From an uncultured Anaerolineaceae bacterium (GTDB lineage Bacteria; Chloroflexota; Anaerolineae; Anaerolineales; E44-bin32), in contig CAZEMA010000004.1 of the NCBI GenBank assembly GCA_964513155.1, forward strand, positions 5,284 to 60,609: a stretch of DNA of 55,326 nucleotides, in the 5' to 3' direction. Below are positions 25,496 to 42,193 of the stretch, one piece after another. Position 1 is the first letter of the stretch, and the number at the start of each line of letters is the position of its first letter. Below the pieces are notes generated by a model. It searched no databases and was not told the DNA's origin. It saw only the letters and a program-made list of their open reading frames with translations. Both the position numbers and the translations under genes were made by a program.

Positions 25496-25544
25496 TTCTC
25501 TTCCGACTTCCGAAGTCCTTTGGACTTCGGAAGTCGGAAGAGAA
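25496..25544 (+). terminator. Perfect 23-bp stem / 3-nt loop hairpin between aminotransferase genes
   Basis: ttctcttccgacttccgaagtcc-ttt-ggacttcggaagtcggaagagaa starts 3 nt after the TAG at 25491-25493. Confidence 0.5.
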
Positions 25545-25578
25545 GGACATCTCAAGCCACATCGGAGGTCAAGCACGC

Positions 25579-26889
25579 ATGAGCCGCGACCTGGATCTGA
25601 CCAAGACCCGCGCCCTGTTTGAGCGCGCCCGACAAGTCATGCCCTGGGGCGTCAGCTCGAACTTCCGCTACTGCGGGGACGATACGCCGGTGATCTCCCG
25701 GGGCCAGGGCGCCTACGTCTGGGATGCCGACGGCAACCGCTTCATCGACTACCGCCTCGCCTTCGGGCCGATCATCCTTGGGCACGCCGACCCACGCGTC
25801 AACCGGCGGGTGCACCAGGCAATCGACGACGGGACGCTCTTCGCCCACACCCACGCCCTCGAGGTTGAGCTGGCCGAGAAGATCGTCCGGATGTGCCCCG
25901 GCGTCGAGATGGTCCGATTCGCCAACTCGGGCACCGAGGCGACCATGCATGCCCTACGCATCGCCCGGGCCCACACCAACCGGGAGAAGATCATCAAGTT
26001 CGAGGGAACCTACCACGGATTCCATGACTACGTCCTCTGGTCGACGGCCTACACCGCCTACGGATCGATCGGCTCGCGGCGCAGCCCGACGGCCGTCTCG
26101 AACTCCTCCGGGATCCCCGCCTGTCTACGTGATCTGGTGATCATGCTGCCCTTCAACGAGTTCGAGATGCTGGACAAGACGGTCCGGGCCCGCTGGGGCG
26201 AGATCGCCGCCATCATCGTCGAGCCGATCGCCGCCAACATGACCAGCATCCTGCCGGAGCCTGGCTGGCTGGAGCACATCCGCCGCCTGTGCGACGAGTT
26301 CGGCATCGTCATGATCGTTGACGAGGTCAAGACCGGGTTTCGCATCGCCCGCGGTGGCGCCACCGAGTACTTCGGCGTCAAAGGCGACCTGATGACCTAC
26401 GCCAAGTCGCTGGCCAACGGTTACCCCCTGGCGGCCATCGGCGGCTCGAAAGAAGTCATGAGCGTGATCGAGCCCGGCCGCATGGCCCACGGCGGCACGT
26501 ACTGCGGCAATGCCGCCGGTGTGGCAGCCGCCCTGGCCACGCTGGAGGTGATCGAGACCACCGACGCCCTAAAGACCGTCGCTGCCCGAGGCAAGCGCCT
26601 GATGGAAGGGATCGATGAGATCCTGACCGAGGCCGGTCTCGAGCACGCCCTGACCGGCGTGCCGGCCATGTTCTCATTCGTACTCGGCCTCTCACATCCG
26701 CCCCGTGAATACCGCGACCTGCAGGCGGTGGACGTGGAGCACTACAAGGCCCTCCAGACCGGCATGCGCGCCCGCGGGGTGGAGTACGAACGTGACGCCA
26801 AGGAGCCGTGGTTCGTGTGTGAGGCCCATTCCGAGGCAGACGTCGAAGTCACTCTCTCCGCACTGGCCGAAGCAGTGAAGGAGGCCTAG
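25579..26889 (+). CDS. Class-III PLP aminotransferase, glutamate-1-semialdehyde-aminomutase-like
   Basis: A GGAGG SD lies upstream. FANSGTEATMHALRIAR, DEVKTGFRIARGG and YAKSLANGYPL form the HemL-like subfamily pattern. Confidence 0.8.
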   Translation: MSRDLDLTKTRALFERARQVMPWGVSSNFRYCGDDTPVISRGQGAYVWDADGNRFIDYRLAFGPIILGHADPRVNRRVHQAIDDGTLFAHTHALEVELAEKIVRMCPGVEMVRFANSGTEATMHALRIARAHTNREKIIKFEGTYHGFHDYVLWSTAYTAYGSIGSRRSPTAVSNSSGIPACLRDLVIMLPFNEFEMLDKTVRARWGEIAAIIVEPIAANMTSILPEPGWLEHIRRLCDEFGIVMIVDEVKTGFRIARGGATEYFGVKGDLMTYAKSLANGYPLAAIGGSKEVMSVIEPGRMAHGGTYCGNAAGVAAALATLEVIETTDALKTVAARGKRLMEGIDEILTEAGLEHALTGVPAMFSFVLGLSHPPREYRDLQAVDVEHYKALQTGMRARGVEYERDAKEPWFVCEAHSEADVEVTLSALAEAVKEA

Positions 26890-26897: not shown

Positions 26898-27159
26898 ATG
26901 TGCCCTGAGATCCTAACCCTCAACTACGTCGATGGCGGCTGGCGGCCGTCCGGCGCGGCGGTTCCGCTACGAGGTCGAAGCCGGGAACATTGGCATCAAC
27001 ATCGGCGTGGCCGCGCCGATGGCTTTCTTCCCCTTCAGCGGCTGGAAAGAGAGCTTCTTCGGCGACTTGCACGGCCAGGGCCTGGACGCGGTCGGGTTCT
27101 TCACCCAGAAGAAGGTCGTGATCGAGCGCTGGCCTAGGGAATGGTCGCGCACGTCCTAA
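26898..27159 (+). pseudogene. Internally deleted (CoA-acylating methylmalonate-semialdehyde type) aldehyde dehydrogenase remnant
   Basis: Frame A (26898-) reads ...[13 protein letters not shown], an ALDH N-terminus. Frame B (26932-27159) reads [56 protein letters not shown], an MmsA/IolA-type C-terminus. Roughly 400 aa of the middle is missing. Confidence 0.7.
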
Positions 27160-27261: not shown

Positions 27262-27915
27262 ATGAGCCAAGAGATGTTCGATGAGATGGCCCAGAGCATC
27301 ATCGATGGCGAACCCGACATCGCCGCGGCGCTGGCCAAGCGGGCCGTAGCCGAGGGGGTCGACCCTCTAGATGCGGTCAACAAAGGATTCCTCATTGGTG
27401 TCAACCGCGTCGGAGAGATGTTCAGCTGCGGGGAGGCCTTTCTTCCCGATCTCGTCTTGGCCGGCGAGGCAATGAAGGCCGCCGTCGCCGTGCTCGATCC
27501 GGAGCTAGCGAAGAGCGGCCTGCAGCGGCAGACGTTGGGCAAGGTGGTGATTGGCACGGTCCAGGGAGACATCCACGACATCGGCAAGACGCTGGTCGCG
27601 ACCTTGCTGGCTGCCGGCGGCTTCGAGGTCTACGATCTCGGGGTAGACGTCTCGGCCGAGGAGTTCGCCGAGAAAGCGCGGCACGTCGGCGCCAGCATCG
27701 TCGGTCTAAGCGCTCTGCTGACCACGACGATGGTCAATCAGAAGACGGTCATCGAGGCCCTGGACGATCTGGGACTCCGGCCGAAGGTCAAGGTGATGGT
27801 CGGGGGTGCGCCGGTGACGCGGACTTGGGCCGAACAGATCGGCGCAGATGGCTACAGTGAGGACGCCATCGGCGCCGTGGGGGAGGCCAAGAGACTGATG
27901 GGAGGCGCCTCATGA
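27262..27915 (+). CDS. Cobalamin-binding corrinoid protein (MtgC/MttC/MtbC type)
   Basis: It has an N-terminal four-helix cap (B12-binding_2-like), a DxHxxG motif (GDIHDIGK, D at nt 27568), an SxL motif (GLSALLT) and a GG motif (VMVGGAPV). The protein is 217 aa. Confidence 0.85.
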
Positions 27916-29096
27916 GAGTCCTGCTCCTCGGGACCGGCTCCGTTGGAGAGGCCATTGCGCTTGTTGCCCACAAGCGGCCCTGGCTCGAAGGCCTGGTCCT
28001 AGCGGACTACAACCTCGAACGCGCCCGGACGGTCCAGGCCCGGTTAGGGCCGCCGGAGGTGTTCCCGGTCGAGCAGGTCGATGCGCGCGACACCCGGCGG
28101 GTCGTCCAGCTGGCCCGCCAGCATCGCGCCAACCTGATCATGAATGCCGTGAGCAGCATTTACAACGACTCGGTGTTCGACGCGGCCTTCGAGGCCGGAT
28201 GCGGATACATCGACATGGCCATGTCGGGCACCGGCGCCGAGATGGGCAGCTACCAGTTCGGCCAGGCCGCGCGCTGGGAGCAAAGGGGGCTGCTGGCCCT
28301 GCTGTGCATGGGGATGGATCCAGGGGTCTCGGACGTTTTCGCCAAGTACGCCGAGAAGCACCTCTTCGACGAGATCGACGAAATCGGCATCCGCGACGGC
28401 GCCAATCTGGCGCTGCAGGGTTACGCATTCGCACCAACCTTTTCGGTTATCGACACCGTAGAGGAGTGCACCGATCTGCCGCTCATCTGGGAGCGCGAGC
28501 GCGGATGGTACACGACGGAGCCGTTCTCCGAGCCGGAGCTCTTCGATTTCCCCGAAGGGATCGGCCCCCTCAAGTGCATCAACATCGAGCACGAGGAGGT
28601 GGTGCTGGTGCCGCGTTGGGTCAAGTGCCGAAGGGTCACCTTCAAGTACAGCCTCGACGACGAGTTCCTGAGCATCATCAAGGCCATCAAAACGCTTGGC
28701 TTGGAGAGCTCCGTCCCGGTAGACATCAAGGGGTTGCGGGTTGCGCCGCGCGATCTCCTGGCCGCCTTGCTCCCCGATCCCGCCAGCCTGGGGGACAAGA
28801 TGAAGGGCAAGACCTGCGTCGGCACGTGGGTCAAGGGTGTCAAGGACGGCAGGCCTCGCCAGGTCTACCTCTACCAGTCCACCGACAACGCCTTTAGCAT
28901 GGAGCGCTACGGCTGCCAGGCCGTCGGACTCCAGACCGGGATCGGGCCGGTGATTGCCATGGAACTCCTGGCGACCGGCGTCTGGCAGGGCCGGGGCGTC
29001 CTCGGCCCGGAGGCGTTCGACCCCGACCCGTTCCTGGCGCGCATGCCTGCGTTCGACTTCCCCTATGGGATCGTCGAGATGGGAGTGGACACATGA
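27912..29096 (+). CDS. Saccharopine-dehydrogenase-family NAD(P) oxidoreductase (paralog 2)
   Basis: There is an ATGA overlap with the corrinoid protein gene. [16 protein letters not shown] is a Rossmann motif. The protein is a strong paralog of the ORF at 21411-22622. Confidence 0.75.
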   Translation: MRVLLLGTGSVGEAIALVAHKRPWLEGLVLADYNLERARTVQARLGPPEVFPVEQVDARDTRRVVQLARQHRANLIMNAVSSIYNDSVFDAAFEAGCGYIDMAMSGTGAEMGSYQFGQAARWEQRGLLALLCMGMDPGVSDVFAKYAEKHLFDEIDEIGIRDGANLALQGYAFAPTFSVIDTVEECTDLPLIWERERGWYTTEPFSEPELFDFPEGIGPLKCINIEHEEVVLVPRWVKCRRVTFKYSLDDEFLSIIKAIKTLGLESSVPVDIKGLRVAPRDLLAALLPDPASLGDKMKGKTCVGTWVKGVKDGRPRQVYLYQSTDNAFSMERYGCQAVGLQTGIGPVIAMELLATGVWQGRGVLGPEAFDPDPFLARMPAFDFPYGIVEMGVDT

Positions 29097-30544
29097 ACGG
29101 CGGCCGGCCTCCGATTGAACCGCTGCGGACCCACCAGAGACTGCGCTGCCTGAGCGATCATCAACTCGACCAACTTCAGGAAGCGACGCTTCAGATCCTG
29201 GAGGAAGTGGGCGTCCGCTTTCCTTCGGAGAAGGCGCTCGCGATCCTGTCCGGCCACGGCGCCCGGGTTGACCCCAAGACACAGGTTGCCAGATTTCCAA
29301 GAGAACTCGTACTCGGGGCAATGTCGAGCGTGCCGCGGTACTTCCACCTCGGTGCCCGCGATCCCTCCCTTGACCTCCAGCTTCAGGACGGGGTCACCTA
29401 CTTCACCTCGGACGGATGCGGGGTCGAGACGGTCGACTTCGAGACCGGCCAGCGGCGTCCCTCGTGCAAGGCGGATGTGGCGCTCATGGCGCGCGTCTGC
29501 GACTATCTCTCGTCAATGGCCTTCTGCTGGCCGATGGTCAGCGCCCAGGATCATGGCAGGACCGCGCCCCTGCACGAGATGGACGCTTGCTGGAACAACA
29601 CCCTTAAGCATGTCCAGAGTGAGACGATCATGGGCGAGGCGCCGGCCCGCTACGCAGTCGAAATGGGCAGTGTGATCGCCGGCAGCCAGGACGAGCTTCG
29701 CCGCCGCCCGACGTTCTCCCTCGTGGTATGCACGATCGCCCCCCTGGTCCAGGATAAGGCCGGCATCGAGGGAGCGCTCGTCCTGGCTGAAGCCGGCGTG
29801 CCGGTCGGCTTTCTGGCCATGCCAACCATGGGGACCACTGCCCCGGCAAGCCTGCCAGGCGCGCTGGCCATGGCCGACGCCGAGATCGTCAGCGCCGCCG
29901 TGCTCATGCAGCTGGCCGCTCCCGGCGCCCCCGTGTTCCACTCGCTGATGCAGGCCTGGGCCGACCCGCGCTCGGGGGCCTACATAAGCTACCCGCTCGA
30001 CTCTCGCGGCCGCTATGCGCCCGTGGAGATGGCCCATCACTGGGGAATGCCAGCCCTGGGCGCCGCCTTCGGCACAGACGCCCCGGCTCCTGGCACCTGG
30101 CAATCGGCGGCTGAGGTCGCCCTGGATCCGTTCTGGGTCGCGCTGACGGGCGCCGAGTTCGTGACAGGCATCGGCCTCGCCGAAACGTATACGCTGCTGT
30201 ACCCCGAGGCCATCATCCTGGACGACGACCTGTACCACCGGGCCCGATATGCCTTGATGGACCTGGAGATCAACGCTGAGACATTGGCCGTCGAGGTCGT
30301 CCGCGCCGTGGGGCCCGCTGGTCACTTCCTGGCGCAGAAGCACACCCGCCAGCACATGCGCCAGGCGATGAAGCCTGCCATCACCCAGATGGCCGGGGAG
30401 AGTGCCAAGTACCTCGAACCGCGCCAGGCGGCGCGAGCCAAGCTCGAATGGATCCTGAAGAACCATCAACCGGAACCCCTGGAGGTAGCCAAGCGAGCCG
30501 AGCTCGAGCGAATCCTCGCCGCCGCCGACAAGGAACTGGGGTAG
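29093..30544 (+). CDS. MttB-superfamily (trimethylamine-methyltransferase-like) methyltransferase, non-pyrrolysine type, paralog A1
   Basis: There is an ATGA overlap with the upstream gene. The protein is 483 aa. LSDHQLDQLQEATLQILEEVGV is a typical MttB-family N-terminus. There is no internal in-frame TAG. Confidence 0.8.
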   Translation: MNGGRPPIEPLRTHQRLRCLSDHQLDQLQEATLQILEEVGVRFPSEKALAILSGHGARVDPKTQVARFPRELVLGAMSSVPRYFHLGARDPSLDLQLQDGVTYFTSDGCGVETVDFETGQRRPSCKADVALMARVCDYLSSMAFCWPMVSAQDHGRTAPLHEMDACWNNTLKHVQSETIMGEAPARYAVEMGSVIAGSQDELRRRPTFSLVVCTIAPLVQDKAGIEGALVLAEAGVPVGFLAMPTMGTTAPASLPGALAMADAEIVSAAVLMQLAAPGAPVFHSLMQAWADPRSGAYISYPLDSRGRYAPVEMAHHWGMPALGAAFGTDAPAPGTWQSAAEVALDPFWVALTGAEFVTGIGLAETYTLLYPEAIILDDDLYHRARYALMDLEINAETLAVEVVRAVGPAGHFLAQKHTRQHMRQAMKPAITQMAGESAKYLEPRQAARAKLEWILKNHQPEPLEVAKRAELERILAAADKELG

Positions 30545-30574
30545 CTAGGCGATCTGCGGCCAGGAGGCAATGAG

Positions 30575-32026
30575 TTGACAAGCGAAACCCCGAAGCTGCA
30601 GCCGATCGTGCCTGCCTACCACGTGCGCCTCCTGACGGACGAGCAGCTGGATCGGTTCAAGTCGGCGACACTCACGATCCTGGACGAGGTCGGCGTTCAC
30701 TGCCCCTCACAACGAGCTCGGGACATCTACGCCGAGCACGGCGCAAGGGTGGAGGCTGACCAGCAGATCGTCCGGCTCCCGCCGGCGATGGTCCTGGAGG
30801 CCATGTCCCACGCTCCTCGCTTCTACACCATGGGGGCGCGCCAGGCAGCGTATGACCTCCGGCTCGACGGGAAGGCAATGTACATCGCCACCGACGGCTG
30901 TGGCGTGGAGACCATTGACTTCTCAACTCGCCAGCGCCGCCCGTCAATGAAAGACGACGTTGCCAAGATGGCCCGGGTGGTCGATGCCCTCCCCTCGGTC
31001 GGCTTCTACTGGCCCATCGTCAGCGCCCAGGACCATCCGCCCACTGCCCCCTTGCACGAACTGGAAGCTTCATTCAACAATACGCTCAAGCACGTCCAGA
31101 CCGAGACCGTCATGGATGAGCGCATGGCGCGCTACGCTCTCGAAATGGCCCGGGTTATCGCCGGGGACGAGACCACGCTGCGCGGGCGTCCACCTCTCTC
31201 ATCGCTGATCTGCACGATTGCGCCCCTGGCCCAGGATGGGGGAGGGATGGAGTCGGCGCTGGTCTTCGCCGAGGCTGGGCTGCCCGTCGGTTTCATGTCG
31301 ATGGCCAACACGGGCTCCACCGGGCCGGGGACGATCGCGGGCACGCTGGCCGCGGCCGACGCCGAGATCGTGGCGGCGCTGGTGCTGATCCAACTAGCGT
31401 TTCCGGGTGCTCCGGTATATCACTCCATGATGCCCGGGATCATGCACCCCCGCACCGGGGCGTATCTGGGCACGGCCTGGGAGGGCGACGTCTTCTACCC
31501 CCTGGGCGTCGAACTCGCCCACAACTGGGGCGTGCCGACTCTGGCCGGATGCTTTGGCACAGACGCCAGCGTGCCGGGCTGGCAGGCAGCCGCCGAGGCG
31601 CCTGCCTCCTTGCTCCTGTGTGCTCTGTGCGGCGCGGAGACAGGCAGTGGCATGGGGCTGCTGGAATCCTGCACCGTGCTTTACCCCGAGGCAGTGCTCC
31701 TGGACACCGACATCTACCACCGGGTGCGTATCCTGGCGGGATACCTCGAGACCGGACCCGAGGCTCTGGCCCTAGATGTGGTCCGGCAGGTCGGCCCGCG
31801 TGGCCAGTACCTGCGGAAACGCCATACCCGGGATCACCTGCGCCGCCTGAGCTTCTCGGAGCTCACCGCCCAACCCCTGCCAGGAGGCGGCTATCGGGAC
31901 CCTGTCGAGGTAGCCCGTGAGAAGGTAGACTGGATTTTGCAGAATCACCAGCCGGAGCCGTTGGAGTCCTACAAGCAAGACGAACTGGCAAGGATCCTTC
32001 GATCGGCGGAAGCGGAGCTGGCATGA
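30575..32026 (+). CDS. MttB-superfamily methyltransferase, non-pyrrolysine type, paralog A2
   Basis: A TTG start lies 7 nt after AGGAGG. The protein is 483 aa and colinear with A1 (TDGCGVETIDF, WPIVSAQDH, NNTLKHVQTE, HQPEPLE). Confidence 0.8.
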   Translation: MTSETPKLQPIVPAYHVRLLTDEQLDRFKSATLTILDEVGVHCPSQRARDIYAEHGARVEADQQIVRLPPAMVLEAMSHAPRFYTMGARQAAYDLRLDGKAMYIATDGCGVETIDFSTRQRRPSMKDDVAKMARVVDALPSVGFYWPIVSAQDHPPTAPLHELEASFNNTLKHVQTETVMDERMARYALEMARVIAGDETTLRGRPPLSSLICTIAPLAQDGGGMESALVFAEAGLPVGFMSMANTGSTGPGTIAGTLAAADAEIVAALVLIQLAFPGAPVYHSMMPGIMHPRTGAYLGTAWEGDVFYPLGVELAHNWGVPTLAGCFGTDASVPGWQAAAEAPASLLLCALCGAETGSGMGLLESCTVLYPEAVLLDTDIYHRVRILAGYLETGPEALALDVVRQVGPRGQYLRKRHTRDHLRRLSFSELTAQPLPGGGYRDPVEVAREKVDWILQNHQPEPLESYKQDELARILRSAEAELA

Positions 32027-32091
32027 GGCCGGGCCGAGGGCCAATGTCACAAGGTAACCACGGCCGGTGATGTTATCAGGAGGAGGGAGAG

Positions 32092-33837
32092 ATGCACGAC
32101 AAGTCTGAGCGCAGACGATGGATTGGGCTCACCTGGGTGGCTGTGCTGGCCATCGTGCTGGCCGGTTGCGGGACCCCGCAGCCGGAGGGGCCGACCCCCG
32201 AAGCCCCACCAGCCACGGCTGGACCCGGCGAGTTGTCCACCATCGTCATGGTCATCCCCGAGGATCCGCCTAGCTTCAACGGGTTGGTGACCGATGCCGG
32301 ATACGACTCGCTCGTTATGGAGCTCGTCCTGCTGAGCGTGACGGACATCGATCCCCAGGGCAATATCTTCCCCGAACTGGCTGCTTCTCTGCCAACGGTC
32401 GAGAACGGCGGGGTCGTCCTGGATGAGGCGAGCGGCGCCATGGACGTCACCTGGACCCTGCGCAACGATGTCTCCTGGGCGGACGGCGAGCCGGTGACCG
32501 CGGACGACGTGATCTTCACCTGGGAGGCGATCAACGCGCCCGAAGGTGGAATCTGGGTCCAGGGATCCGACTACGTCGACAGCGTTGAGAAGATCGACGA
32601 GTTCACTTTCGTCGTCCACTACACCTCCGTCTACACCGGCTACCTGACCCAGTTCGGCGGCGACCAGGTGGTCATCTGGCCTCACCACTACTGCGACGCG
32701 TCGCAGGGCTTTGTCGCCTGGGACTGCAACCGCCAGCCTCTGAGCGACGGCCCGTACATCCTCGAGGAGTGGGAGGAAGGCGACCACCTCACCTTCGTCC
32801 GCAACCCCATGTTCTACCAGGCCGGCAAGCCCTTGATTGACCGGATCATCATCCGCATCGTGCCTGAGGCGGCCGTGCGCCAGACCATGATGGCCCGGGG
32901 GGACGCCGATGTCGATGTCTGGGTGACGGAAGCGGGCATCGAGGAACTGAGCAGCGCCCCCGATGTCGCCGTCAGCATGGCCCCCAACCCCCGGTGGGTG
33001 TTCCGGCTCATCCCCAACCTGGCCGCTCGCGGAACCATCGATGCCGCGGCCACGCCCCACCCGATTCTCTCAGACGTGCGCGTGCGCCAGGCCATGCGCA
33101 TGGCGATTGACGTTGAGACCATTTCCCAGACCGTGTTCCGTGGCTATGGCCAGCCGATCTGGACGGAGTTCTTCCGCCCGCCCTACATCTGTACGATCAC
33201 CCGCCCCGCGTACGACCCCGAAGGGGCCCAGGCGATGCTGGAGTCGGCCGGTTGGGTTGACATCAATGACGACGGGGTCCGAGAGTGCCAGGGTTGCCTG
33301 AATGCTCCCGAGGGCTACCGCATGTCGATGGAATTCGCCACCTACGGTGAGTACGGCCCGGAGCTCGAACTGGCCCAGCAGTTGATCGGCGAGATGTTGG
33401 GCAGGATCGGCTTCGAGTTGCAGCTGCGGGTCCTCCAGGGACCGGTGATGTGGGCCGACCAGGCCAGCGGCGGCACCGAGCAGAATGGTCAGTTCGACCT
33501 CGACATGTACGATGATGGCTACCCCGGCGTGGACCCGACCGAGCATCTGTACTTCTATTACTACTCGGCCTCCGCCGTGCCCGATGCCGGCTTCAACGTC
33601 GGCCGGTGGATCAGCCCGGAATTCGACGCCTTGCTGGACGAGGCCTACACACTGGACGAAGCGCGGCGCCAGGAAGTGTTCTGCCAGATCGCCCAATTGC
33701 TGGACGAACAACTGCCGCAGATCCTGCTCTTCTCTGCCGTCAATGCCGACGCCCATTCCACGCGGCTTGAGGGCGTGCAATCCACGGTCAACGACATGGT
33801 GACCTGGAATGTCGCCGACTGGAGGCTCACCCAGTAG
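32092..33837 (+). CDS. Family-5 (Opp/Dpp/opine/nickel type) ABC substrate-binding lipoprotein
   Basis: An AGGAGGAGGGAG SD lies upstream. The lipobox is VLAGCG. The protein is 581 aa and has the SBP_bac_5 look (DVxWSDGEPVTADDVxFTWE). Confidence 0.85.
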   Translation: MHDKSERRRWIGLTWVAVLAIVLAGCGTPQPEGPTPEAPPATAGPGELSTIVMVIPEDPPSFNGLVTDAGYDSLVMELVLLSVTDIDPQGNIFPELAASLPTVENGGVVLDEASGAMDVTWTLRNDVSWADGEPVTADDVIFTWEAINAPEGGIWVQGSDYVDSVEKIDEFTFVVHYTSVYTGYLTQFGGDQVVIWPHHYCDASQGFVAWDCNRQPLSDGPYILEEWEEGDHLTFVRNPMFYQAGKPLIDRIIIRIVPEAAVRQTMMARGDADVDVWVTEAGIEELSSAPDVAVSMAPNPRWVFRLIPNLAARGTIDAAATPHPILSDVRVRQAMRMAIDVETISQTVFRGYGQPIWTEFFRPPYICTITRPAYDPEGAQAMLESAGWVDINDDGVRECQGCLNAPEGYRMSMEFATYGEYGPELELAQQLIGEMLGRIGFELQLRVLQGPVMWADQASGGTEQNGQFDLDMYDDGYPGVDPTEHLYFYYYSASAVPDAGFNVGRWISPEFDALLDEAYTLDEARRQEVFCQIAQLLDEQLPQILLFSAVNADAHSTRLEGVQSTVNDMVTWNVADWRLTQ

Positions 33838-33857
33838 CGGGGGGGGTTGCCCCTCCC

Positions 33858-33896
33858 GGCTCGCAGGTGCGACCGTTGCGGACGCACCTGCGAGCC
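33858..33896 (+). terminator. Intra-operon 14-bp perfect hairpin between the SBP and permease genes
   Basis: ggctcgcaggtgcg-(11 nt)-cgcacctgcgagcc lies 21 nt after the SBP stop and 17 nt before the permease start. Confidence 0.5.
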
Positions 33897-33912
33897 ATGA
33901 TTTGGGGATGAC

Positions 33913-34953
33913 ATGGGTCGCTACATCGCCCGGCGTCTGCTGCAGGCCATCCCGATGCTCTTCCTGCTCAGCCTCGTGCTGTTCACCTTGGTCAACCTGG
34001 CTCCCGGTGGGCCCCTGGCCAGCCAAGGTGTGTCGCGCCATGTCTCCCCGGAACGGCTGGAAAGGCTGAGGCGCGAATTCGGCCTGGATAAGCCCCTGGC
34101 CGTTCAGTATGTCATCTGGCTGATCGGAAATGACTGGATGAGGGTCGACGCGGACGGGGACGGTGTGCCAGACAGCTACGGCCAGCGCCGGGGCATCTTG
34201 CGAGGCGACTTCGGGTCCTCCTTCCGCACCCGCCAGCCGGTCCTCCAGGAGATCGCTGATCGCCTGCCCAATACCGCCTACCTGATGGCAGTCACCATCG
34301 TGGTCGTCGGTGTCATTGCCATTCCGGTGGGAGTCTTCTCAGCCGTCAGGCAATACTCCCTATTCGACATCGGCGTGACAACCTTGTCTTTCATGGGACA
34401 GGCGATCCCCGAGTTCTGGCTGGGCCTCATCCTGATCTTGATCTTCTACGCCCGCTTGGAGAACCCATTTACCGGCGCGCCCTTGCTCCCCTCGGGCGGG
34501 ATGTATACCCTGGGAATGGGCTTCTCGCTCTTGGATCGGATCAAGCATTTGATTCTGCCGGTCACGATGGGAGCCGTCGGCTGGGTTGCCTGGTACTCGC
34601 GCTTCCTGCGCTCCGGCATGCTGGACGTGATCAACCAGGACTACGTCCGCACCGCACGGGCCAAGGGCTTGGCCGAACGCAAGGTCCTGTACCGGCATGC
34701 CCTCAAGAACGCCTTGATCCCTCTGCTGACGATCTTCGGCCTGGACTTGCCCTACATTTTCACCGGATCCCTCTACGTCGAGCTGCTCTTCTCCTGGCCT
34801 GGCATGGGCAGGCTCTACTACCAAGCTGCGCTGGCTCGTGACTACCCACTCTTGATGGCCGTCCTGATCATCGCCTCGGCGACGACCGTCATCTGCAACC
34901 TGGTGGCCGACATCAGCTATGGCTACCTCGATCCCAGGATCCAGTATGAGTAG
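33913..34953 (+). CDS. ABC permease, DppB/OppB-like
   Basis: MGRYIARRLLQAIPMLFLLSLVLF is a typical N-terminus. The EAA-like region is YVRTARAKGL. Confidence 0.85.
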   Translation: MGRYIARRLLQAIPMLFLLSLVLFTLVNLAPGGPLASQGVSRHVSPERLERLRREFGLDKPLAVQYVIWLIGNDWMRVDADGDGVPDSYGQRRGILRGDFGSSFRTRQPVLQEIADRLPNTAYLMAVTIVVVGVIAIPVGVFSAVRQYSLFDIGVTTLSFMGQAIPEFWLGLILILIFYARLENPFTGAPLLPSGGMYTLGMGFSLLDRIKHLILPVTMGAVGWVAWYSRFLRSGMLDVINQDYVRTARAKGLAERKVLYRHALKNALIPLLTIFGLDLPYIFTGSLYVELLFSWPGMGRLYYQAALARDYPLLMAVLIIASATTVICNLVADISYGYLDPRIQYE

Positions 34954-35914
34954 CGACGGCGGCGCCGTGCGGGACGCCAGGACCTCGGCCCAAAGGGCCC
35001 GCGATCGTGCCCTCGAATCCGAGCACCTCGGTTCAGACCGGGGGTCGTTGGTATGGCGCCGCTTCCGCAGTCACCCAGGGGCCGTTGTGGGCACGATGGT
35101 CCTGGCGGTCCTGATCCTCATGGTCCTGCTCGCGCCGGCGTTGCCCCACGACCCGGAGCTCTCGTCGATGTCCGAGCGGCTCCAGCCCCCCTCCTTGTCC
35201 CATCCTATGGGCACAGACGCGTTGGGCCGGGACCTGCTCACTCGCGTTCTGTATGGGGGGCGCATCTCGCTGTCGGTGGGTCTGATGGTCGTGGCGATCA
35301 CGCTGGTCATCGGGGTGCCCATCGGGGCCGTCACCGGCTACTTCGGTGGATGGATCGACGATGTTCTGATGCGGATCACGGACGCCGCCCTCAGTCTGCC
35401 GGCCATTCTCGTGCTCATCCTGCTGAGCGCCGTCCTGCAGGAGATCCCGGTGCCCTTCATCCAGCACAACAACGTGCTGATGATCGCCGTGGTGATTGGC
35501 TCCCTCTCCTGGATGACGGTCGCCCGTCTGGTGAGGGCCAGCTTCCTCACCTTCCGGGAAATGGACTTCGTCACCGCCGCCCGCTGCATTGGCGCGCCCA
35601 ACTTCCGGATCATGGCCCGACACATCCTGCCGAACGCGGTCGGCCCCATCGTGGTCGAATCCACGCTCGAGGTTGGCTACGCCATCATGGAGGAATCCGG
35701 ATTGAGCTTCCTGGGTTTCGGCATCCAACCCCCGACGCCCAGCTGGGGAAACCTGCTCAGCAACGCACAAGACCATCTCATTCGAGAACCCTGGCTGGCC
35801 ATCTTCCCCGGGTTGATGATCTTCCTGACGATCATCTCGGTCAACTACATCGGCGACGGGGTACGGGATGCATTCGATCCCTACAAGGTACTCAAGAAGA
35901 TCGGGCAAGTCTGA
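34946..35914 (+). CDS. ABC permease, DppC/OppC-like
   Basis: The ATG at 34946 overlaps the upstream stop by 8 nt. HPMGTDALGRDLLTRVLYG and FVTAARCIGA are DppC-family motifs. Confidence 0.85.
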   Translation: MSSDGGAVRDARTSAQRARDRALESEHLGSDRGSLVWRRFRSHPGAVVGTMVLAVLILMVLLAPALPHDPELSSMSERLQPPSLSHPMGTDALGRDLLTRVLYGGRISLSVGLMVVAITLVIGVPIGAVTGYFGGWIDDVLMRITDAALSLPAILVLILLSAVLQEIPVPFIQHNNVLMIAVVIGSLSWMTVARLVRASFLTFREMDFVTAARCIGAPNFRIMARHILPNAVGPIVVESTLEVGYAIMEESGLSFLGFGIQPPTPSWGNLLSNAQDHLIREPWLAIFPGLMIFLTIISVNYIGDGVRDAFDPYKVLKKIGQV

Positions 35915-35933
35915 GGTTCCCCACAGGTGAGAG

Positions 35934-37364
35934 ATGCAGACAGTGCTGCGAGTGCTCTCGGACGATGAGCGGTCCCAGGTTCATGAGAGGACGCTCGAGG
36001 TACTCTCCAAAACAGGCCTTCGGGTTGATTCCGTCCGGGCGCGCAAGATCCTGGCGGACGCCGGGGCCGACGTGGATGAGACTTCTCGGATTGTACGTTA
36101 CCCCAAGGACCTGGTCGAGCGCTGCCTCAGCTCCGCGCCCAGGAAGTTCAACTTGGGAGGGCGGCGGCCCCACTGGACCCTCCCCCTAAGCAAGGGGGAG
36201 TGCACGCTGGTTGCCGATGGGGAGGGGATGCAGGTCGTCGACGGCACACCACTCCAGCGGCGTGCGGCGACGCCAGACGATTGGCTCAAGGCTACGCGGC
36301 TGATCGACGCCTTGGATGAGGTCGGCGTCTACTGGCGCATGGTGACAAGCGGCCTGGCCGGCCAATCGTCGGGAGACCTGGTCGCCTATTGGCGTAAGGT
36401 GTTCGGCAACTTCTCCAAGCATATCCAGGAGGGCAACGAAGATCCGGACCAAGTCCACTGGACCCTCGAGGTCTTGCAGGTCGTGTTTGGCGACCGGGCC
36501 ACCATCAAGCGCCTGCGGCCGGTCTCGTTCCTGCTCTGCCCCCTGTCGCCGCTCATCCTCCAGGGTGCGCCCGTCGATGCCTATCTGGAGACACTGGACT
36601 GGGGGATCCCCCTGGCCATCATGCCCATGCCTCTGATGGGGGCAACTGCGCCGGCAAGCCTGATCTCGACCCTCGTCTTGGCCAACACAGAGGCACTGGC
36701 GGTTCTGTGTTTGGCGCAGACGGCAGACCCGGGGACGCCCTGCATCTACGCGCCGGTCCCCGGTCTGGTTAACCCACGGACGGGCCGGTACAACGGCGGC
36801 GAGGTCGAACACGCTCTTCTCGGCGCGGCCGTGGCCGAGATGGGCGGCCACTACGGCCTGCCGGTCGAGACGGCGACCGGCGGCACCGATCAGCCCATTC
36901 CCGGCCTGCAGGCCGCCTACGAGCGCGCCATCAACTGGACGCTGCCGGTCTTGGCCTGGCCCGACATCCTGGTCGGCCCGGGCATGCTCAGCGGCTCGAC
37001 GGTCCTCTCGTATGAGCAGATGGTCATCGATGTGGAGATCTTCCGGCGATGCCGGCGGCTCCGCCAGGGGATCAACACCGAGCCGAAACGCTGGCTGGAG
37101 GACGTGCTGGCAGCCGTCGGCGCGGGTGGCAACTTCCTCGCCCAGCGCACCACTCGGGACGCCCTACGGAAGAACGAATGGTATATCAGCCGACTCGGTT
37201 TCCACGACACCTACGAGCAATGGGAAGCGCTCGACAGGCCATATATCCTGGCGGAAGCCCGCGAACGCGTTGATCAGTTCCTGGCGAACCGCGAGTCGCT
37301 ACCCCTGGATGATCGCGCAGAGCGCGAGCTCGATCGGATCGAGCGTCAGGCCCGGATGGCCTGA
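35934..37364 (+). CDS. MttB-superfamily methyltransferase, non-pyrrolysine type, paralog B1
   Basis: The protein is 476 aa. The N-terminus is LSDDERSQVHERTLEVLSKTGLRV, and MPMPLMGATAP is present. It is much more divergent from A1/A2. Confidence 0.75.
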   Translation: MQTVLRVLSDDERSQVHERTLEVLSKTGLRVDSVRARKILADAGADVDETSRIVRYPKDLVERCLSSAPRKFNLGGRRPHWTLPLSKGECTLVADGEGMQVVDGTPLQRRAATPDDWLKATRLIDALDEVGVYWRMVTSGLAGQSSGDLVAYWRKVFGNFSKHIQEGNEDPDQVHWTLEVLQVVFGDRATIKRLRPVSFLLCPLSPLILQGAPVDAYLETLDWGIPLAIMPMPLMGATAPASLISTLVLANTEALAVLCLAQTADPGTPCIYAPVPGLVNPRTGRYNGGEVEHALLGAAVAEMGGHYGLPVETATGGTDQPIPGLQAAYERAINWTLPVLAWPDILVGPGMLSGSTVLSYEQMVIDVEIFRRCRRLRQGINTEPKRWLEDVLAAVGAGGNFLAQRTTRDALRKNEWYISRLGFHDTYEQWEALDRPYILAEARERVDQFLANRESLPLDDRAERELDRIERQARMA

Positions 37365-37390
37365 CAATCCCCGAATAGAGAGGAGGAGGG

Positions 37391-38839
37391 TTGGACGTAC
37401 AGCTGCAGGTGCTGTCTGAGGCGGAACGGGAACGCGTCCACAGGGAAAGCCTGCGGATCCTGAGCGAGGTTGGCGTCCGCTTCCACGGTGACAAGGCCTT
37501 GGGGATTCTGGAGACTCACGGCGCCAAGGTCTCCCGAGAGCAGAAGCTGGCCAGGATCCCCCAGGAGTTGGTCAGCCTAGCCCTGGCAACTGCCCCCAAG
37601 TCCTTCGTGTTGCAGGCCAGGAATCCCGATTTGAGTTTCTCGCTCCCCTCGGCCTTCCCGGGCTACGGCATGGATGGGACGTGCGCCTTTGCCGTTGACT
37701 TCGAGACCGGGGAGAGGCGCTACGGAACCACCAAGGACATCCGCAACGCCTTACGCGTCTTCCAGGCGCTGGATCTGGCCGTGATGGCCTGGTCGCCCAC
37801 GTGTGCCTCGGACAAGCCGGCCAACGCCAGGCCCCTGCACGAGTTCTTCGGCATGCTGCGGCACTGCTCCAGGCACGGCCAGCACGAACTCCACCGCGTC
37901 GAGCAGGTGCCCTACCTCATCGCCGGTCTTAAGGCCATCCTGGGCAGCGAGGACGCCATCAAGGCGAAGAAGATCTGCTCCCTGATCTACTGCCCTGTGG
38001 CCCCTCTGGTCCACGATGGGCAGATGCTGGACGCCTATCTCGAACTGGGCGAGTTCGAGTTGCCCGTGATGATCATGCCCATGCCGGTTACCGGAACCAC
38101 CGGCCCCGCCAGCCTATTCTCCAACATCTGCCTGGCGAATGCTGAAACGCTCTCGGCGATCGTCGTCTTCCAGCTTGCCCACCCCGGCCGACACTTGATC
38201 TACAGCGATGCGGTCGGCACAATGGACTTCGCCACGGGCGGCTTCCTGGCCGGCGCGCCGGAGACGGCGCTCCAGGCGACCGGTCTCGTTGCCATGGGCC
38301 GTCACTACAACCTCCCGACGACGTCCACCGGCTGTTCGGCCGACGCCAAGGAACCCGGGGCGCAGGCTGTCCTGGAGAAGGTGCTCACGACGCTGCCCTG
38401 CGTCTTGGCCGGCTCGGATATGATCATTGGGATCGGCTTGATCGAGTGCAGCCAGACCCTTGTCCTGGAGCAGATCGTCGTCGACAACGAGATCGGCCAC
38501 CTGTGCCAGCGCATACGCCAGGGGATTGACACCGACGAGAAAAGGAACCTGTTCGCAGACATTGCCCAGGTGGGTCCTGGCGGCAACTTCCTCAAGTCAA
38601 GGAGCACCCGCCAGGCCGCCCGCAGTGGTGAGTTCTCGCGCACGACGCTGGTGGATCGGCAACCCTACGAGGCCTGGGTCAAGCAGGGAATGCCATCGAT
38701 CTACACCCGGGCCAGGGAGAAGGTGCGGGCGATTCTGGAGGCTCCCCCTGTGGATCCCTTGCCCGAGGACGTATCTCATGAATTGGACGAGATCCTGCGC
38801 GTCGCCGACCGCGAGATCCCTGCGGAGGCCGGCGGGTAG
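37391..38839 (+). CDS. MttB-superfamily methyltransferase, non-pyrrolysine type, paralog B2
   Basis: A TTG start follows GAGGAGGAGGG. The protein is 482 aa. LSEAERERVHRESLRILSEVGVRF and MPMPVTGTTGP are present. Confidence 0.75.
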   Translation: MDVQLQVLSEAERERVHRESLRILSEVGVRFHGDKALGILETHGAKVSREQKLARIPQELVSLALATAPKSFVLQARNPDLSFSLPSAFPGYGMDGTCAFAVDFETGERRYGTTKDIRNALRVFQALDLAVMAWSPTCASDKPANARPLHEFFGMLRHCSRHGQHELHRVEQVPYLIAGLKAILGSEDAIKAKKICSLIYCPVAPLVHDGQMLDAYLELGEFELPVMIMPMPVTGTTGPASLFSNICLANAETLSAIVVFQLAHPGRHLIYSDAVGTMDFATGGFLAGAPETALQATGLVAMGRHYNLPTTSTGCSADAKEPGAQAVLEKVLTTLPCVLAGSDMIIGIGLIECSQTLVLEQIVVDNEIGHLCQRIRQGIDTDEKRNLFADIAQVGPGGNFLKSRSTRQAARSGEFSRTTLVDRQPYEAWVKQGMPSIYTRAREKVRAILEAPPVDPLPEDVSHELDEILRVADREIPAEAGG

Positions 38840-38962
38840 CCTCGGCGAACAACAACCGTTGGTGATTGCCAGCGCGCCCGCGAGGTTGCTCTGCCTTCTC
38901 TGCCCCGGCCCAAGAGGCGGACTACGGATACCGTCGGATCACCCGTTCCCTGAGGAGTGGAA

Positions 38963-40237
38963 ATGACGACAGACGCGATTTCGCACATCTCGCCGATCTG
39001 GCCCCGCAGCTGGACGCTCCTGGTCGACCATGGCCGCGGACCATACATCTACAGCACCGATGGCCGAGAATACCTCGACTTCACCTGCGGCATCGCCGTC
39101 ACGAATACCGGCCATTCTCACCCCCGGGTGGTTCAGGCGATCCAGGAGCAGGCCGCGCGGCTGATCCATGGCCAGGCGAATATCGTCATTCACCAGCCCA
39201 TGCTCCGCCTGGTCGAAGAGCTCCTGACCGTCGTGCCGACACAGCTGGACAGCTTCTTCTTCACCAATTCGGGCGCCGAAGCCGTTGAAGGGGCGGTCAA
39301 GCTGGCCCGCGCCGCGACGGGACGGCCGAACGTGATCGTCTTCCAGGGATCCTTCCACGGTCGCACCAACGCCACCATGGCCATGACCACTTCCAAGACG
39401 ATCTACCGGGCCGGCTACCAGCCGCTCGCCAGCGGTGTGTTTGTCGCTCCCTACCCGTACGCCTACCGTTTCGGCTGGGATGAGGAGACGACCCTTCACT
39501 TCTGCCTGCGCGAGCTCAAGATTCTCCTCAAGTCGCAAACGGCGCCGGAAGAAACCGCGGCCATTGTTGTCGAGCCCGTTCTGGGCGAAGGCGGCTATGT
39601 TGTCCCGCCGGACGGGTTCTTGCCAGTGCTCAGGGACCTTTGCGACCACTCTGGCATCCTGCTAGTTGCCGACGAGGTGCAAACGGGCTTTGGGCGGACC
39701 GGCAAGTGGTTCGCCGTCGAGCACAGTGGGGTCATCCCCGACATCCTCATCATGGCGAAGGGTATCGCCTCCGGGCTTCCTCTGGCCGGGCTGGCGGCTC
39801 GCGGGGAATTGATGCAGCGTTGGCCGCCGGGATCGCATGGCGGCACGTTCGGAGGCAACGTGGTTGCCTGCGCTGCCGCGGTGGCGACCATCCAGGTGAT
39901 CCGCGAGGAGCGGCTGGTGGAGAACGCCGCCCGGATGGGCGAAGTGCTTCTGGGCGGCTTGCGGCAGTTGCAGGCCGCGCACCCGGAGATTGGCGAGGTG
40001 CGCGGGCGTGGGCTAATGATCGCCAGCGAGTTCACCGATCCATCCGGCGAGCCCTGGACCGAGCGAGCCAAGGCCGCCGCCAAGGCCGCCTATGAGGAAG
40101 GGCTTCTCCTGCTCACCTGCGGCACCTACGACAATGTCGTCCGCTGGATCCCTCCGCTCGTCGTGAACGCCAGCCAGATTGAAGAGGCGTTGGCGAAGTT
40201 CGAGCGAGCCCTGGACCGAAGCCGGGTCTCCGCCTAG
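38963..40237 (+). CDS. Class-III PLP aminotransferase, 4-aminobutyrate aminotransferase-like
   Basis: The ATG lies 5 nt after GAGGAG. FTNSGAEAVEGAVKLAR, DEVQTGFGRTGKWFA and MAKGIASGLPL fit the GabT-like pattern. Confidence 0.8.
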   Translation: MTTDAISHISPIWPRSWTLLVDHGRGPYIYSTDGREYLDFTCGIAVTNTGHSHPRVVQAIQEQAARLIHGQANIVIHQPMLRLVEELLTVVPTQLDSFFFTNSGAEAVEGAVKLARAATGRPNVIVFQGSFHGRTNATMAMTTSKTIYRAGYQPLASGVFVAPYPYAYRFGWDEETTLHFCLRELKILLKSQTAPEETAAIVVEPVLGEGGYVVPPDGFLPVLRDLCDHSGILLVADEVQTGFGRTGKWFAVEHSGVIPDILIMAKGIASGLPLAGLAARGELMQRWPPGSHGGTFGGNVVACAAAVATIQVIREERLVENAARMGEVLLGGLRQLQAAHPEIGEVRGRGLMIASEFTDPSGEPWTERAKAAAKAAYEEGLLLLTCGTYDNVVRWIPPLVVNASQIEEALAKFERALDRSRVSA

Positions 40238-40483
40238 GCTTCCTTTAGGAGTCCACCATAGAATCAGCCTGCCCCGCCGTCTCCTCTACATCGGCCGGTT
40301 AGGTGGCTCCTGGGAGATTGATTGCGATCCGGTAACTCTCGACGGGAGAGACCTGGTTGACCTGGTCAAGGGGGTCTGCCAAGAGGGAGACCCGAAAGCC
40401 GCGCATCTTCCCTGCGCTCCAGTCCGGGAAGGCGATATCGCGGGATGTGGCACGGAACCGTTAGACCTGCCGAGGAGCTTAGG

Positions 40484-42193
40484 ATGAACTCTCGAGTGTG
40501 GCGCGCCGATGTCGCCAAGCGTACAGTGCAGACGGAAAGCGTACCAGCCGGCTGGGAACAGTGGGGGGGCCGGGGTCTCATCGCCCGGATCCTCCTGGAC
40601 GAAGTGCCTCCCACTTGCGACCCCCTCGGCCCTTTCAGCAAGCTGATCTGGGCACCCGGGCTGCTGGTTGGTCACATGGTCTCGTCGTGTGACCGTATCT
40701 CGATTGGAGGCAAGAGCCCGCTCACCGGGGGTGTCAAGGAGAGCAACGCCGGGGGCACGACCGGCCTGAAGATGGTCCGCCTGGGAATCAAGGCGCTGCT
40801 GCTCGAGGGCGACCTGGCCACCAACGGCTGGTGGTTGCTCCATCTCACCACCGAAGGCGGCCGCGTTGAAGCGGCAGACGATGTCGCCGGACTGGGGACC
40901 TACGAGGCGGCCAGCCGTCTCCTGGAGCGCTTCGGCTCCAAGGTGGGCCTGGCAGTGATCGGCCCGGCTGGGGAAATGCGCCTAGCGGCCGCGGGGGTCC
41001 TCAACCTCGACAAGGATCGGGAGCCCTCTCGCATTAACGGCCGAGGTGGACTGGGAGCGATTATGGGCGCCCGCCGGTTGAAGGCAATCATCATCGATGA
41101 CGCGGGCGGAGACAAGCCGCTGTTGGCCGATCCTGCGAGATTCGTCGCGGCCCAGAAGTACTTCACCCGGGAGCTGATGGCCCATCCCCAGACGGCGATC
41201 TACCGGGACTACGGCACGGCGGCGCTCGTCTCGACGGTCGAGGGCTTCGGCGGTCTGCCGACTCGTGGCTTTTCCTCCGGCCACTTCGAGGGCGCCGAGA
41301 ACATCAGCGGCGAAGCCATGCGGGACCTTCTCCTTTCGCGAGAGGCGCCCAGCGAGACCACCCACGCCTGCATGCCTGGATGCACGATTCGCTGCTCCAA
41401 TCGGGTGGGAAGCGCCAAGGGGGAGAAGATCGTCGCACCCCTCGAGTACGAGACGATCGGCCTGGTCGGCGCCAACCTGGGCTTCGACAACCTGGACGTT
41501 ATCGCCAGGCTCAATTGGGAACTCAACGACCTGGGACTGGACACGATCGAAACGGGGGCCGCGCTGGGAGTCGCGGCGCAGGCAGGTTATATGTCCTTTG
41601 GGGATTCTGAGAGCGTGATGGCTCTCCTCAACGAGATTCGCAGAGGCACACCGCTCGGCCGCCTCATCGGGAACGGCGCGGCCACCACCGGCCGCGTCCT
41701 GGGCGTCAGGCGTGTGCCGGCCGTCAAAGGGCAGGCGTGCGCGGCCTACGATCCCCGCGCCATCAAGGGTACCGGGGTGACCTACGCCACATCCCCTCAG
41801 GGCGCAGATCACACCGCCGGGCTGACCGTCAGGGCCAAGGTGGATCACCTCGATCCCAAGGGGCAGGCCGACCTCTCCCGGACCGCCCAGGTCAACATGG
41901 CCGGCTACGACACGCTGGGCGCCTGCATCTTCGCCGGCTTCGGTTTCGCCAAAGCCCCTGGCGCCATCCGCGACTTGCTCAATGGCCGCTACGGCTGGTC
42001 GGTCGGCGACGGGATCCTGCAAGAGCTCGGCCGCCAGACCCTGACGTGGGAGCGGACCTTCAACCGCCTCGCTGGCTTCGGCCCTGAAGACGATCGGATT
42101 CCCGAGTGGATGACCACCGAACCGCTCCCGCCGCACAACTCTGTCTTCGACGTTCCCAACGAAGACCTCGACGGGATCTTCGAATGGTCGTGA
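40484..42193 (+). CDS. aor: Tungsten/molybdopterin aldehyde:ferredoxin oxidoreductase (AOR family)
   Basis: The ATG follows GAGGAG. WGGRGLIARIL...DPLGP.SKLIWAPGLL.G......R.SIGGKSPLTGG..ESNAGG is the AFOR N-terminal signature. The C-terminal domain carries Cys motifs (HACMPGCTIRC). Confidence 0.85.
   Translation: MNSRVWRADVAKRTVQTESVPAGWEQWGGRGLIARILLDEVPPTCDPLGPFSKLIWAPGLLVGHMVSSCDRISIGGKSPLTGGVKESNAGGTTGLKMVRLGIKALLLEGDLATNGWWLLHLTTEGGRVEAADDVAGLGTYEAASRLLERFGSKVGLAVIGPAGEMRLAAAGVLNLDKDREPSRINGRGGLGAIMGARRLKAIIIDDAGGDKPLLADPARFVAAQKYFTRELMAHPQTAIYRDYGTAALVSTVEGFGGLPTRGFSSGHFEGAENISGEAMRDLLLSREAPSETTHACMPGCTIRCSNRVGSAKGEKIVAPLEYETIGLVGANLGFDNLDVIARLNWELNDLGLDTIETGAALGVAAQAGYMSFGDSESVMALLNEIRRGTPLGRLIGNGAATTGRVLGVRRVPAVKGQACAAYDPRAIKGTGVTYATSPQGADHTAGLTVRAKVDHLDPKGQADLSRTAQVNMAGYDTLGACIFAGFGFAKAPGAIRDLLNGRYGWSVGDGILQELGRQTLTWERTFNRLAGFGPEDDRIPEWMTTEPLPPHNSVFDVPNEDLDGIFEWS

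Follow-up and report, generated by a model that had tools for sequence, protein, structure and literature searches.

Four pyrrolysine-free MttB-family orthogroups stay together with one importer in Anaerolineae-type Chloroflexota and may share one family of methylated-amine substrates

Why should one locus carry four methyltransferases of the same family, and do these serve four substrates or one? This question is raised by a stretch of 55,326 nucleotides (hereafter the window) on contig C4 (CAZEMA010000004.1) of an uncultured Anaerolineaceae bacterium, which is represented by a 2.57-Mb metagenome-assembled genome (MAG; GCA_964513155.1) that is 87.7% complete and has ~65% G+C. The window encodes four MttB-family, predicted substrate-demethylating methyltransferases (methyltransferase 1, MT1), here named A1, A2, B1 and B2, with importer genes set between the two pairs. 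An earlier note, made from the letters of the window, had seen in them four non-pyrrolysine (non-Pyl) enzymes served by a single corrinoid protein, each with a substrate of its own or acting one after the other on a single amine. Comparative analysis reveals that the cassette is a conserved unit of Anaerolineae-type Chloroflexota, common to dozens of related soil and sediment species. On balance, we favour the reading that its four MT1s act jointly on related forms or positions of one non-acidic (cationic, possibly polyamine-like) methylated-amine family.

All four genes lie on the plus strand: A1 at 29093-30544 (483 aa, ATG start), A2 at 30575-32026 (483 aa, TTG start after AGGAGG), B1 at 35934-37364 (476 aa, ATG start) and B2 at 37391-38839 (482 aa, TTG start after GGAGGAGG). 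Their products belong to the MttB superfamily, matching PF06253 end to end with 181.5, 193.3, 203.3 and 271.8 bits, respectively (cut-off 25 bits), and covering ~460 of its 500 profile positions. None of the reading frames contains an internal stop, and the description of four full-length paralogs free of internal TAG thus stands. Global identity amounts to 52.5% for A1/A2, 35.9% for B1/B2 and 31.5-34.4% for the cross pairs, in agreement with the claim of two pairs of which the second is more diverged. Neither a UAG-encoded Pyl nor a score at the level of the MttB equivalog TIGR02369 (cut-off 525 bits) is found in any of them (324 bits for A1, 324-373 bits for the four), and they are therefore not MttB in the strict sense. 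Profiles for PylS and PylD gave no match above cut-off anywhere in the genome at its 87.7% completeness. HMMER comparisons with solved sequences (MttB, PDB 7XCL; MtgB, PDB 2QNE and 9YCE; 4YYC) returned the Pyl-containing MttB of Methanosarcina barkeri as the best-scoring relative of all four (169-197 bits), with 139-183 bits for MtgB; B2, at 197 bits to the former and 183 bits to the latter, is the paralog nearest to true MttB.

A quick IQ-TREE search with 50 sequences resolved four clades with an SH-aLRT support of 100 each, in which A1 and A2 are sisters (95), as are B1 and B2 (98). The FastTree orthogroups, obtained from 228 sequences, comprise 48 members for A1 (support 0.92), 43 for A2 (1.0), 59 for B1 (1.0) and 59 for B2 (1.0), and both pairs are monophyletic, at 1.0 for A1 + A2 and 0.97 for B1 + B2; the characterized Eubacterium limosum enzymes MtpB, MtcB, MtyB and MthB were left out of the trees. 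The four proteins therefore represent anciently diverged orthogroups rather than recent copies. Relatives of A1 in public metagenomes fall into more than 120 protein clusters of 68-77% identity, and the named ones come from MAGs of Anaerolineae or Chloroflexota.

Which substrates these enzymes may bind can be judged from the pocket of MtgB of Desulfitobacterium hafniense. In a 2026 study, Y97 and F356 were found to hold the quaternary nitrogen through cation-π interactions, whereas the carboxylate is contacted by R312 and H348, R312 being essential and kept in MtcB, MtpB, MthB and MtyB (PMC13080624). Four pocket columns (R312, Pyl, H348 and F356) agree between pairwise HMMER alignments to MtgB and MttB and two multiple alignments. 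The R312 position is occupied by L or M in A1 (L322 in the window), by L in A2, by E in 39 of 59 B1 orthologs with T, I or V in the others (E312 in the window) and by T, S, M, G or A in B2 (T311 in the window); arginine is present in 0 of 209 orthologs across the orthogroups. The carboxylate-binding residue of the characterized MT1s for acidic quaternary amines (MtgB, MtpB, MtcB, MtyB and MthB) is thus absent from all four. At the Pyl position, which is L317 in MtgB, a comparison that the earlier note had called for finds G in A1, A2 and B1 (G317) and T, A or S in B2 (S316 in the window). The H348 column holds G in A1, A2 and B2 and G or A in B1, never H, while the F356 column holds Y in 47 of 48 A1, C in 42 of 43 A2, S or A in B1 and D in 53 of 59 B2 sequences, the B2 of the window having S. 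The Y97 position looks aromatic in B2 alone, in a poorly aligned column.

The quartet therefore resembles the MtgB/MtgC/MtgA system of D. hafniense in its TIM-barrel family, in the near full-length alignment at the scores given above and in its three-component logic, whereas the pocket differs. Because R312 is replaced in all four, H348 is never His and F356 is aromatic only in A1, glycine betaine is an unlikely substrate. M. barkeri MttB also has no Arg at the R312 position, where a Tyr is found; unlike MttB, the quartet has no UAG-encoded Pyl, with Gly (A1, A2, B1) or Ser (B2) in its place. All four are without the acid-binding Arg, and B1 and most B2 orthologs even have acidic pocket residues, which argues that the substrates of the quartet are non-acidic and probably cationic. 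Moreover, the pocket signatures are conserved inside each orthogroup and different between orthogroups, which supports the earlier claim of four distinct, non-redundant non-Pyl enzymes; the identical pocket residues that the note had named as evidence against its reading are not seen.

Conservation of the cassette was scanned with the B2 orthogroup as seed and one genome per species. The scan returned 66 loci, placing B2 orthologs in 65 other Chloroflexota species, and all 66 stem from uncultured Chloroflexota (Anaerolineae, Anaerolineales, Anaerolineaceae, 'uncultured Chloroflexia' bins and Candidatus Limnocylindrales). A1, A2, B1 and B2 all lie within 8 kb of B2 in 39 of the 66 species loci; among these full-quartet loci, 26 carry Opp-type and 11 PotB/C-type permeases. 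At least five gene orders occur, namely substrate-binding protein (SBP)-OppBC-B1-A1-A2-B2, with or without a following gene for the second methyltransferase (MT2); SBP-OppBC-A1-A2-B1-B2; PotD-like-A1-A2-(A1')-B1-B2; B1-B2 divergent from A2-A1; and the order of the window, which recurs in locus L047 with the aminotransferase gene AT4 and two genes for an aldehyde:ferredoxin oxidoreductase (AFOR). A1 and A2 are adjacent, A1 first, in almost all loci holding both, and the commonest order places them between B1 and B2. A second sample, which comprised 300 genomes of the class, contained B1 in 11, A2 in 10 of those 11 and nowhere else, A1 in 8 of the 11 and in one further genome, and B2 in one, counts that are descriptive only because the genomes are related and not independent.

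We favour joint action on one substrate family because, in many species and despite rearrangements, these four orthogroups have remained beside a single importer. It is this persistence, and not the single corrinoid gene, that is the unusual feature of the locus. In E. limosum (PMC8604678), MtqC, MtqA and RamQ serve MtpB, MtcB and MtyB while being encoded apart from them, MtqA and RamQ within a gene cluster for methyl-tetrahydrofolate (methyl-THF) oxidation. Given this layout, several MT1s sharing one corrinoid protein are not unusual. E. limosum is like the window in having several non-Pyl MT1s, one corrinoid protein, and an MT2 and activase elsewhere near Wood-Ljungdahl genes. It differs in that its MT1 genes are scattered, are separately induced by separate betaines and all encode the acid-binding Arg, whereas in the cassette of the window four fixed orthogroups, all lacking this residue, travel with an importer.

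The E. limosum arrangement also lends weight to a different reading, in which each paralog has its own distinct quaternary amine, as is the case for MtgB, MtpB, MtcB/MtyB and MthB of acetogens, and the genes are pooled in one island sharing a corrinoid protein. The characterized non-Pyl members each remove a single methyl group from a quaternary amine, and MtqC is shared by three of them. The differing pocket signatures would fit such a division of labour, as would the ability of B2 to occur alone and the existence of paralog-rich relatives, with 19 MttB genes in one genome (G008) and more than 50 first-look candidates in another (G301). We nevertheless regard four independent substrates as rather unlikely, four unrelated betaines being the less likely choice beside one substrate family. 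The cassette encloses a single importer with a single binding protein, and in 39 of 66 loci the orthogroups have not been parted although at least five gene orders occur and the importer type has been exchanged. Furthermore, A2 and B1 co-occur nearly perfectly in the unbiased sample, where independent substrates should give independent gain and loss, and the Arg with which acidic quaternary amines are bound is missing from all four. The rule of one methyl group and one quaternary amine per non-Pyl enzyme, which the earlier note took as established, is in addition slightly too strict, since carnitine and gamma-butyrobetaine are both substrates of MtcB and also of MtyB (PMC8604678).

Several observations weigh against joint action. 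B2 is separable, being alone in 10 of 66 loci. One sister species (G001) holds only the corrinoid gene, B2, AT4 and two AFOR genes. In a second (G003), codons 1-80 of A1 continue directly into B1 at about its codon 289 (L016:1-400, L045:12953-13399); this deletion took the remainder of A1, all genes up to and including the importer and the beginning of B1, and left B2-AT4 intact. This A1::B1 deletion probably arose by recombination between the paralogs; an assembly artefact at contig ends is possible. Co-inheritance in one operon can also mean transfer as a unit rather than a common substrate. In five other species the closest ortholog of the corrinoid protein lies outside the cassette locus, on another contig or, where comparable, hundreds of kb away, and the operon of the window contains no gene for an importer ATPase. 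Finally, the pocket positions were mapped through sequence alignment only, the Y97 column being unreliably aligned and the H348 column ambiguous by one residue in B1. We still hold joint action to be the better supported reading.

The surroundings of the individual orthogroups vary in other lineages. In four other species, stand-alone B2 genes have neighbours for an amidohydrolase, GH114, an S9 peptidase, GNAT and an acyltransferase, a mixed set without a hint of the substrate. Beside B1 in other Anaerolineae families (L038, L037, L035, L014 and L040) lie genes for large Amidohydro_3 amidohydrolases, major facilitator superfamily transporters and S15 X-Pro dipeptidyl peptidase, as well as for a C45 acyltransferase-type hydrolase and an enolase-superfamily (MR_MLE) enzyme, so that the substrates there might be amide-linked or derived from peptides. 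More distant Sacchrp_dh genes also recur near B1 in other families. In the paralog-rich relative G008, at least nine of the 19 MttB matches lie within one 20-kb stretch with extra A-like clades (contig C22, L014 and L015), and about 50 first-look MttB candidates came from G301 and G299.

If the four enzymes share a substrate family, they might do so in a strict sequence, taking a quaternary amine through the tertiary and secondary to the primary amine without Pyl, after which AT4 and AFOR would give the aldehyde and the acid. Co-inheritance of the quartet with a single importer is consistent with such a route, as is the presence of a GABA (4-aminobutyrate)-type aminotransferase and an AFOR after B2 in this genus and its kin, because an aminotransferase requires a primary amine. 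Most B1 orthologs have Glu and 53 of 59 B2 orthologs have Asp where the characterized enzymes have Arg or an aromatic residue, which suits an N-H ammonium over a quaternary one, and stepwise demethylation of betaine is known physiologically. On the other side, tertiary and secondary amines are not known as substrates of any non-Pyl member of the MttB family, the B2 of this genome has Ser and not Asp at the F356 position, and four enzymes face at most three steps on a trimethylammonium group. The link to AT4 and AFOR is confined to a few close lineages (4 of 66 loci), and the aminotransferase could instead have its target in another amino group of the substrate, one that carries no methyl. We thus consider a strict sequence improbable, and it is equally doubtful that the quartet constitutes a Pyl-independent, complete stepwise N-demethylation of one non-acidic amine (e.g. 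a methylated di- or polyamine or an amino alcohol) in which acidic pocket residues (Glu in B1, Asp in most B2 orthologs) would bind the protonated nitrogen instead of Pyl, and AT4 and AFOR would in this genus transaminate and oxidize the amine set free.

The idea of a sequence is, however, not as unprecedented as the earlier note had it: for 'Ca. Formimonas warabiya' DCMF and Sporomusa ovata An4, paralogous MT1s have already been suggested, on grounds other than enzymology, to demethylate glycine betaine step by step (PMC9768040). These clusters are like the cassette in holding several MT1 paralogs hypothesized to act on successive methylation states; they differ in that their betaine transporters are of the BCCT type and their enzymes MtgB-like, the second step being as yet without an assigned enzyme (PMC9768040). 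The cassette of the window, in contrast, consists of other orthogroups and another importer.

The constant order of A1 and A2 in almost every locus with both would also be expected if A1/A2, and possibly B1/B2, formed heterodimers in which each C-terminal extension closes the active-site rim of the partner, leaving one or two enzymes instead of four. In the dimers of MtgB and MttB, the C-terminal extensions are swapped between the subunits (PMC13080624), and obligate heteromerization after duplication is common. Yet A1-A2 separate B1 from B2 in the commonest gene order, B2 occurs alone, and the conserved pocket of its own in each orthogroup suggests four working active sites. We therefore give heteromers little credence and retain joint action of four separate enzymes.

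A methyl carrier for the four MT1s is likely provided by the corrinoid (B12-binding) protein encoded at 27262-27915 on the plus strand, a role that we read here from adjacency only. The protein consists of B12-binding_2 and B12-binding domains and scores 218.4 bits against TIGR02370 (cut-off 215.3), while it remains below the cut-offs of the MtgC models. Its gene lies in the same operon as the MT1 genes, as in a three-component system, and is translationally coupled into it, the stop overlapping the start of the following gene, SDH2, by 4 nt. As the earlier note had stated, it is the only B12-binding protein found in the window. We also considered the corrinoid gene as a constant companion of the quartet, an idea that we rejected in view of its placement in the five species mentioned above. 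At least four other small corrinoid-protein genes exist in the genome (contigs C113, C15, C65 and C165). The one on C113 encodes an MtgC_2-like protein and lies on the minus strand (L002:1-7586) with a GntR/UTRA regulator and two MttB homologs (493 and 482 aa), neither of which has the R312 Arg; a gene with a homocysteine S-methyltransferase domain is cut there by the contig end. This layout recalls the link between betaine demethylation and methionine synthesis of marine bacteria (PMC12478193).

An MT2 and a RamA/RACo-type activase are both present in the genome, in two pairs. The first belongs to the acetyl-CoA synthase (ACS) operon, acsB-acsD-acsC-RACo-cooC-acsE, whose tail reaches into the window 25 kb upstream of the cassette with a CooC-like ATPase (375-1193, plus strand) and a Pterin_bind protein (1212-2135, plus strand). 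The best models of the latter are methyl-THF:corrinoid/iron-sulfur protein (CFeSP) methyltransferases, identifying it as AcsE. Contig C4 upstream of the window (L001:1-5400) encodes the AcsB C-terminus, two CdhD-family CFeSP subunits and RACo, a 643-aa activase that ends ~450 bp before the window start. Because of this complete-looking operon tail, the organism is a Wood-Ljungdahl bacterium. The second pair lies on contig C9, where a small gene and then another RACo/RamA-type activase gene come directly after a Pterin_bind gene (283 aa). The C9 Pterin_bind protein is 59-63% identical to the Pterin_bind product encoded 40-60 nt after B2 in nine other species and 35% identical to AcsE. Since it is orthologous to the cassette-linked MT2 of nine species and adjoins a RamA-like activase, it is the likelier candidate for the MT2 of the system, ahead of AcsE. 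The view that the gene at 1212 is the only MT2 candidate thus holds for the window, of which it is the sole Pterin_bind gene, and gives way to C9 for the genome. Likewise, no RamA-like activase is found in the window, as had been said, which reflects where the window was cut: one lies just beyond its start and another on C9.

The importer is encoded between A2 and B1 by a family-5 (Opp/Dpp/Nik-type) SBP (32092-33837; SBP_bac_5, 204 bits), an OppB-like permease (33913-34953) and an OppC-like permease (34919-35914), all on the plus strand, each permease combining BPD_transp_1 with a BPD_transp_1_N or OppC_N domain. The best solved relative of the SBP is AppA with 81 bits only, which is too distant to infer a ligand. 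Orthologs of the SBP (52-71% identity) stand beside the quartet in other species, and those of the permeases (56-77% identity) within the cassette of other species. ABC ATPase genes adjoin the homologous importer in three cases (G008, G039 and L078).

Between the corrinoid gene and A1, and translationally coupled to both, lies SDH2 (27912-29096, plus strand), which encodes an oxidoreductase of the saccharopine-dehydrogenase/carboxy(nor)spermidine-dehydrogenase family (Sacchrp_dh_NADP and Sacchrp_dh_C domains). Carboxyspermidine dehydrogenases make or break secondary amines. SDH2 reaches 194 bits with the carboxynorspermidine synthase model (cut-off 800), and its best solved relatives are 4ina (210 bits) and the carboxyspermidine dehydrogenase 8deb (174 bits). 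Orthologs occur between A2 and B1 in L059 and L077 (70% identity) and after the corrinoid gene in G003 (91%). A parallel might be drawn to the E. limosum choline system MthB/MthC/MthA/MthK, in which the accessory protein MthK prepares the substrate (PMC12155760). A related gene of the upstream region, SDH1 (21396-22622, plus strand), encodes a carboxy(nor)spermidine-dehydrogenase-like protein that is ~58% identical to the SDH2 type, as measured via the G003 ortholog. We saw no carboxyspermidine decarboxylase gene in the window, and the setting of SDH1 and SDH2 looks catabolic; both enzymes may run in the cleavage direction.

Downstream of B2 follow AT4 (38957-40237, plus strand), a class-III aminotransferase of the GABA-aminotransferase type (Aminotran_3, 441 bits; best solved relatives the PuuE/GabT 4-aminobutyrate aminotransferases, up to 345 bits), and a tungsten-type AFOR (40445-42193, plus strand; AFOR_N and AFOR_C, up to 240 bits to solved AFORs). 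The adjacency of B2 and AT4 is retained in G001, G003, G017 and L047. A general conserved unit of corrinoid gene, B2, AT4 and AFOR was considered and rejected, as close relatives alone show it (4 of 66 loci). The plus strand at 17176-26889, ahead of the corrinoid gene, carries amine-catabolism genes for a PotABCD-type polyamine importer, SDH1 and three class-III aminotransferases, one of them putrescine-aminotransferase-like. Since this region has the look of polyamine uptake and putrescine transamination, and given the enzyme types of AT4, AFOR and SDH2, a methylated diamine or polyamine would fit as the substrate, as would an amino acid or amino alcohol ending as an omega-amine, which we offer as a conjecture.

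Eleven genes thus follow one another on the plus strand at 27262-42193, with short gaps or 4-nt overlaps between neighbours, in the order corrinoid protein, SDH2, A1, A2, family-5 SBP, two Opp-type permeases, B1, B2, AT4 and AFOR. This run probably represents one operon that unites the cassette with the corrinoid protein, SDH2, AT4 and AFOR, the latter being its last gene. It is flanked by two terminator-like hairpins, one on the plus strand at 27000-27021, between the upstream aminotransferase genes and the corrinoid gene, and one at 42439-42459, 3' of AFOR. The first may mark an operon boundary and is weak evidence, as the terminator scan overall did no better than chance (5 sites found versus 6.7 expected). 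A scan for promoters gave no hit on the plus strand around the operon, and Rfam gave no match in the window, hence no cobalamin riboswitch ahead of the corrinoid gene either.

The gene content, the orthogroups, the substitutions in the pockets, the conservation of the cassette and the places of the helper genes are observed directly, while the methyl transfer, the partner assignments and the nature of the substrate are deduced from homology and gene context, which together suggest the following route. The importer would take up the methylated amine, and each MT1 would transfer an N-methyl group to the Co(I) of the adjacent corrinoid protein. The C9 Pterin_bind protein, as MT2, would hand the methyl group to THF, while the RamA-like activase beside it would repair oxidized cobalt. 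The resulting methyl-THF could then feed the Wood-Ljungdahl pathway, with the ACS operon on the same contig as the cassette, and AFOR would oxidize the aldehyde produced by AT4.

Few 'methylamine' genes are annotated as often in metagenomes of soil and sediment as those of the MttB family, and the usual reading of these is growth on, or use of, trimethylamine or glycine betaine. As the cassette shows, much of this gene pool is conserved and belongs to four orthogroups that fit neither reading. In the literature, mttB genes are reported as especially common in Anaerolineae and Limnocylindria (PMC11264602), a general remark beyond which we found no description of the quartet. Its substrate, if identified, would be a new methyl donor for the anaerobic one-carbon metabolism of widespread uncultured Chloroflexota, and if some members do use tertiary or secondary amines, this would show N-demethylation without Pyl. 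With the corrinoid protein, MT2, activase and binding protein now located, direct testing is possible.

Two further genes upstream of the operon deserve mention. The third upstream aminotransferase (25579-26889) scores 581 bits with the NCBIfam model of GntE, a guanitoxin-pathway transaminase (cut-off 525), and also lies above the cut-off of a glutamate-1-semialdehyde aminomutase subfamily model. Divergent from potA, a 260-aa open reading frame on the minus strand (16236-17018) gave no Pfam or NCBIfam match. A 34% identical homolog stands directly upstream of the cassette corrinoid gene in another species (G138; L033:3142-3573), and the open reading frame of the window may encode a regulator.

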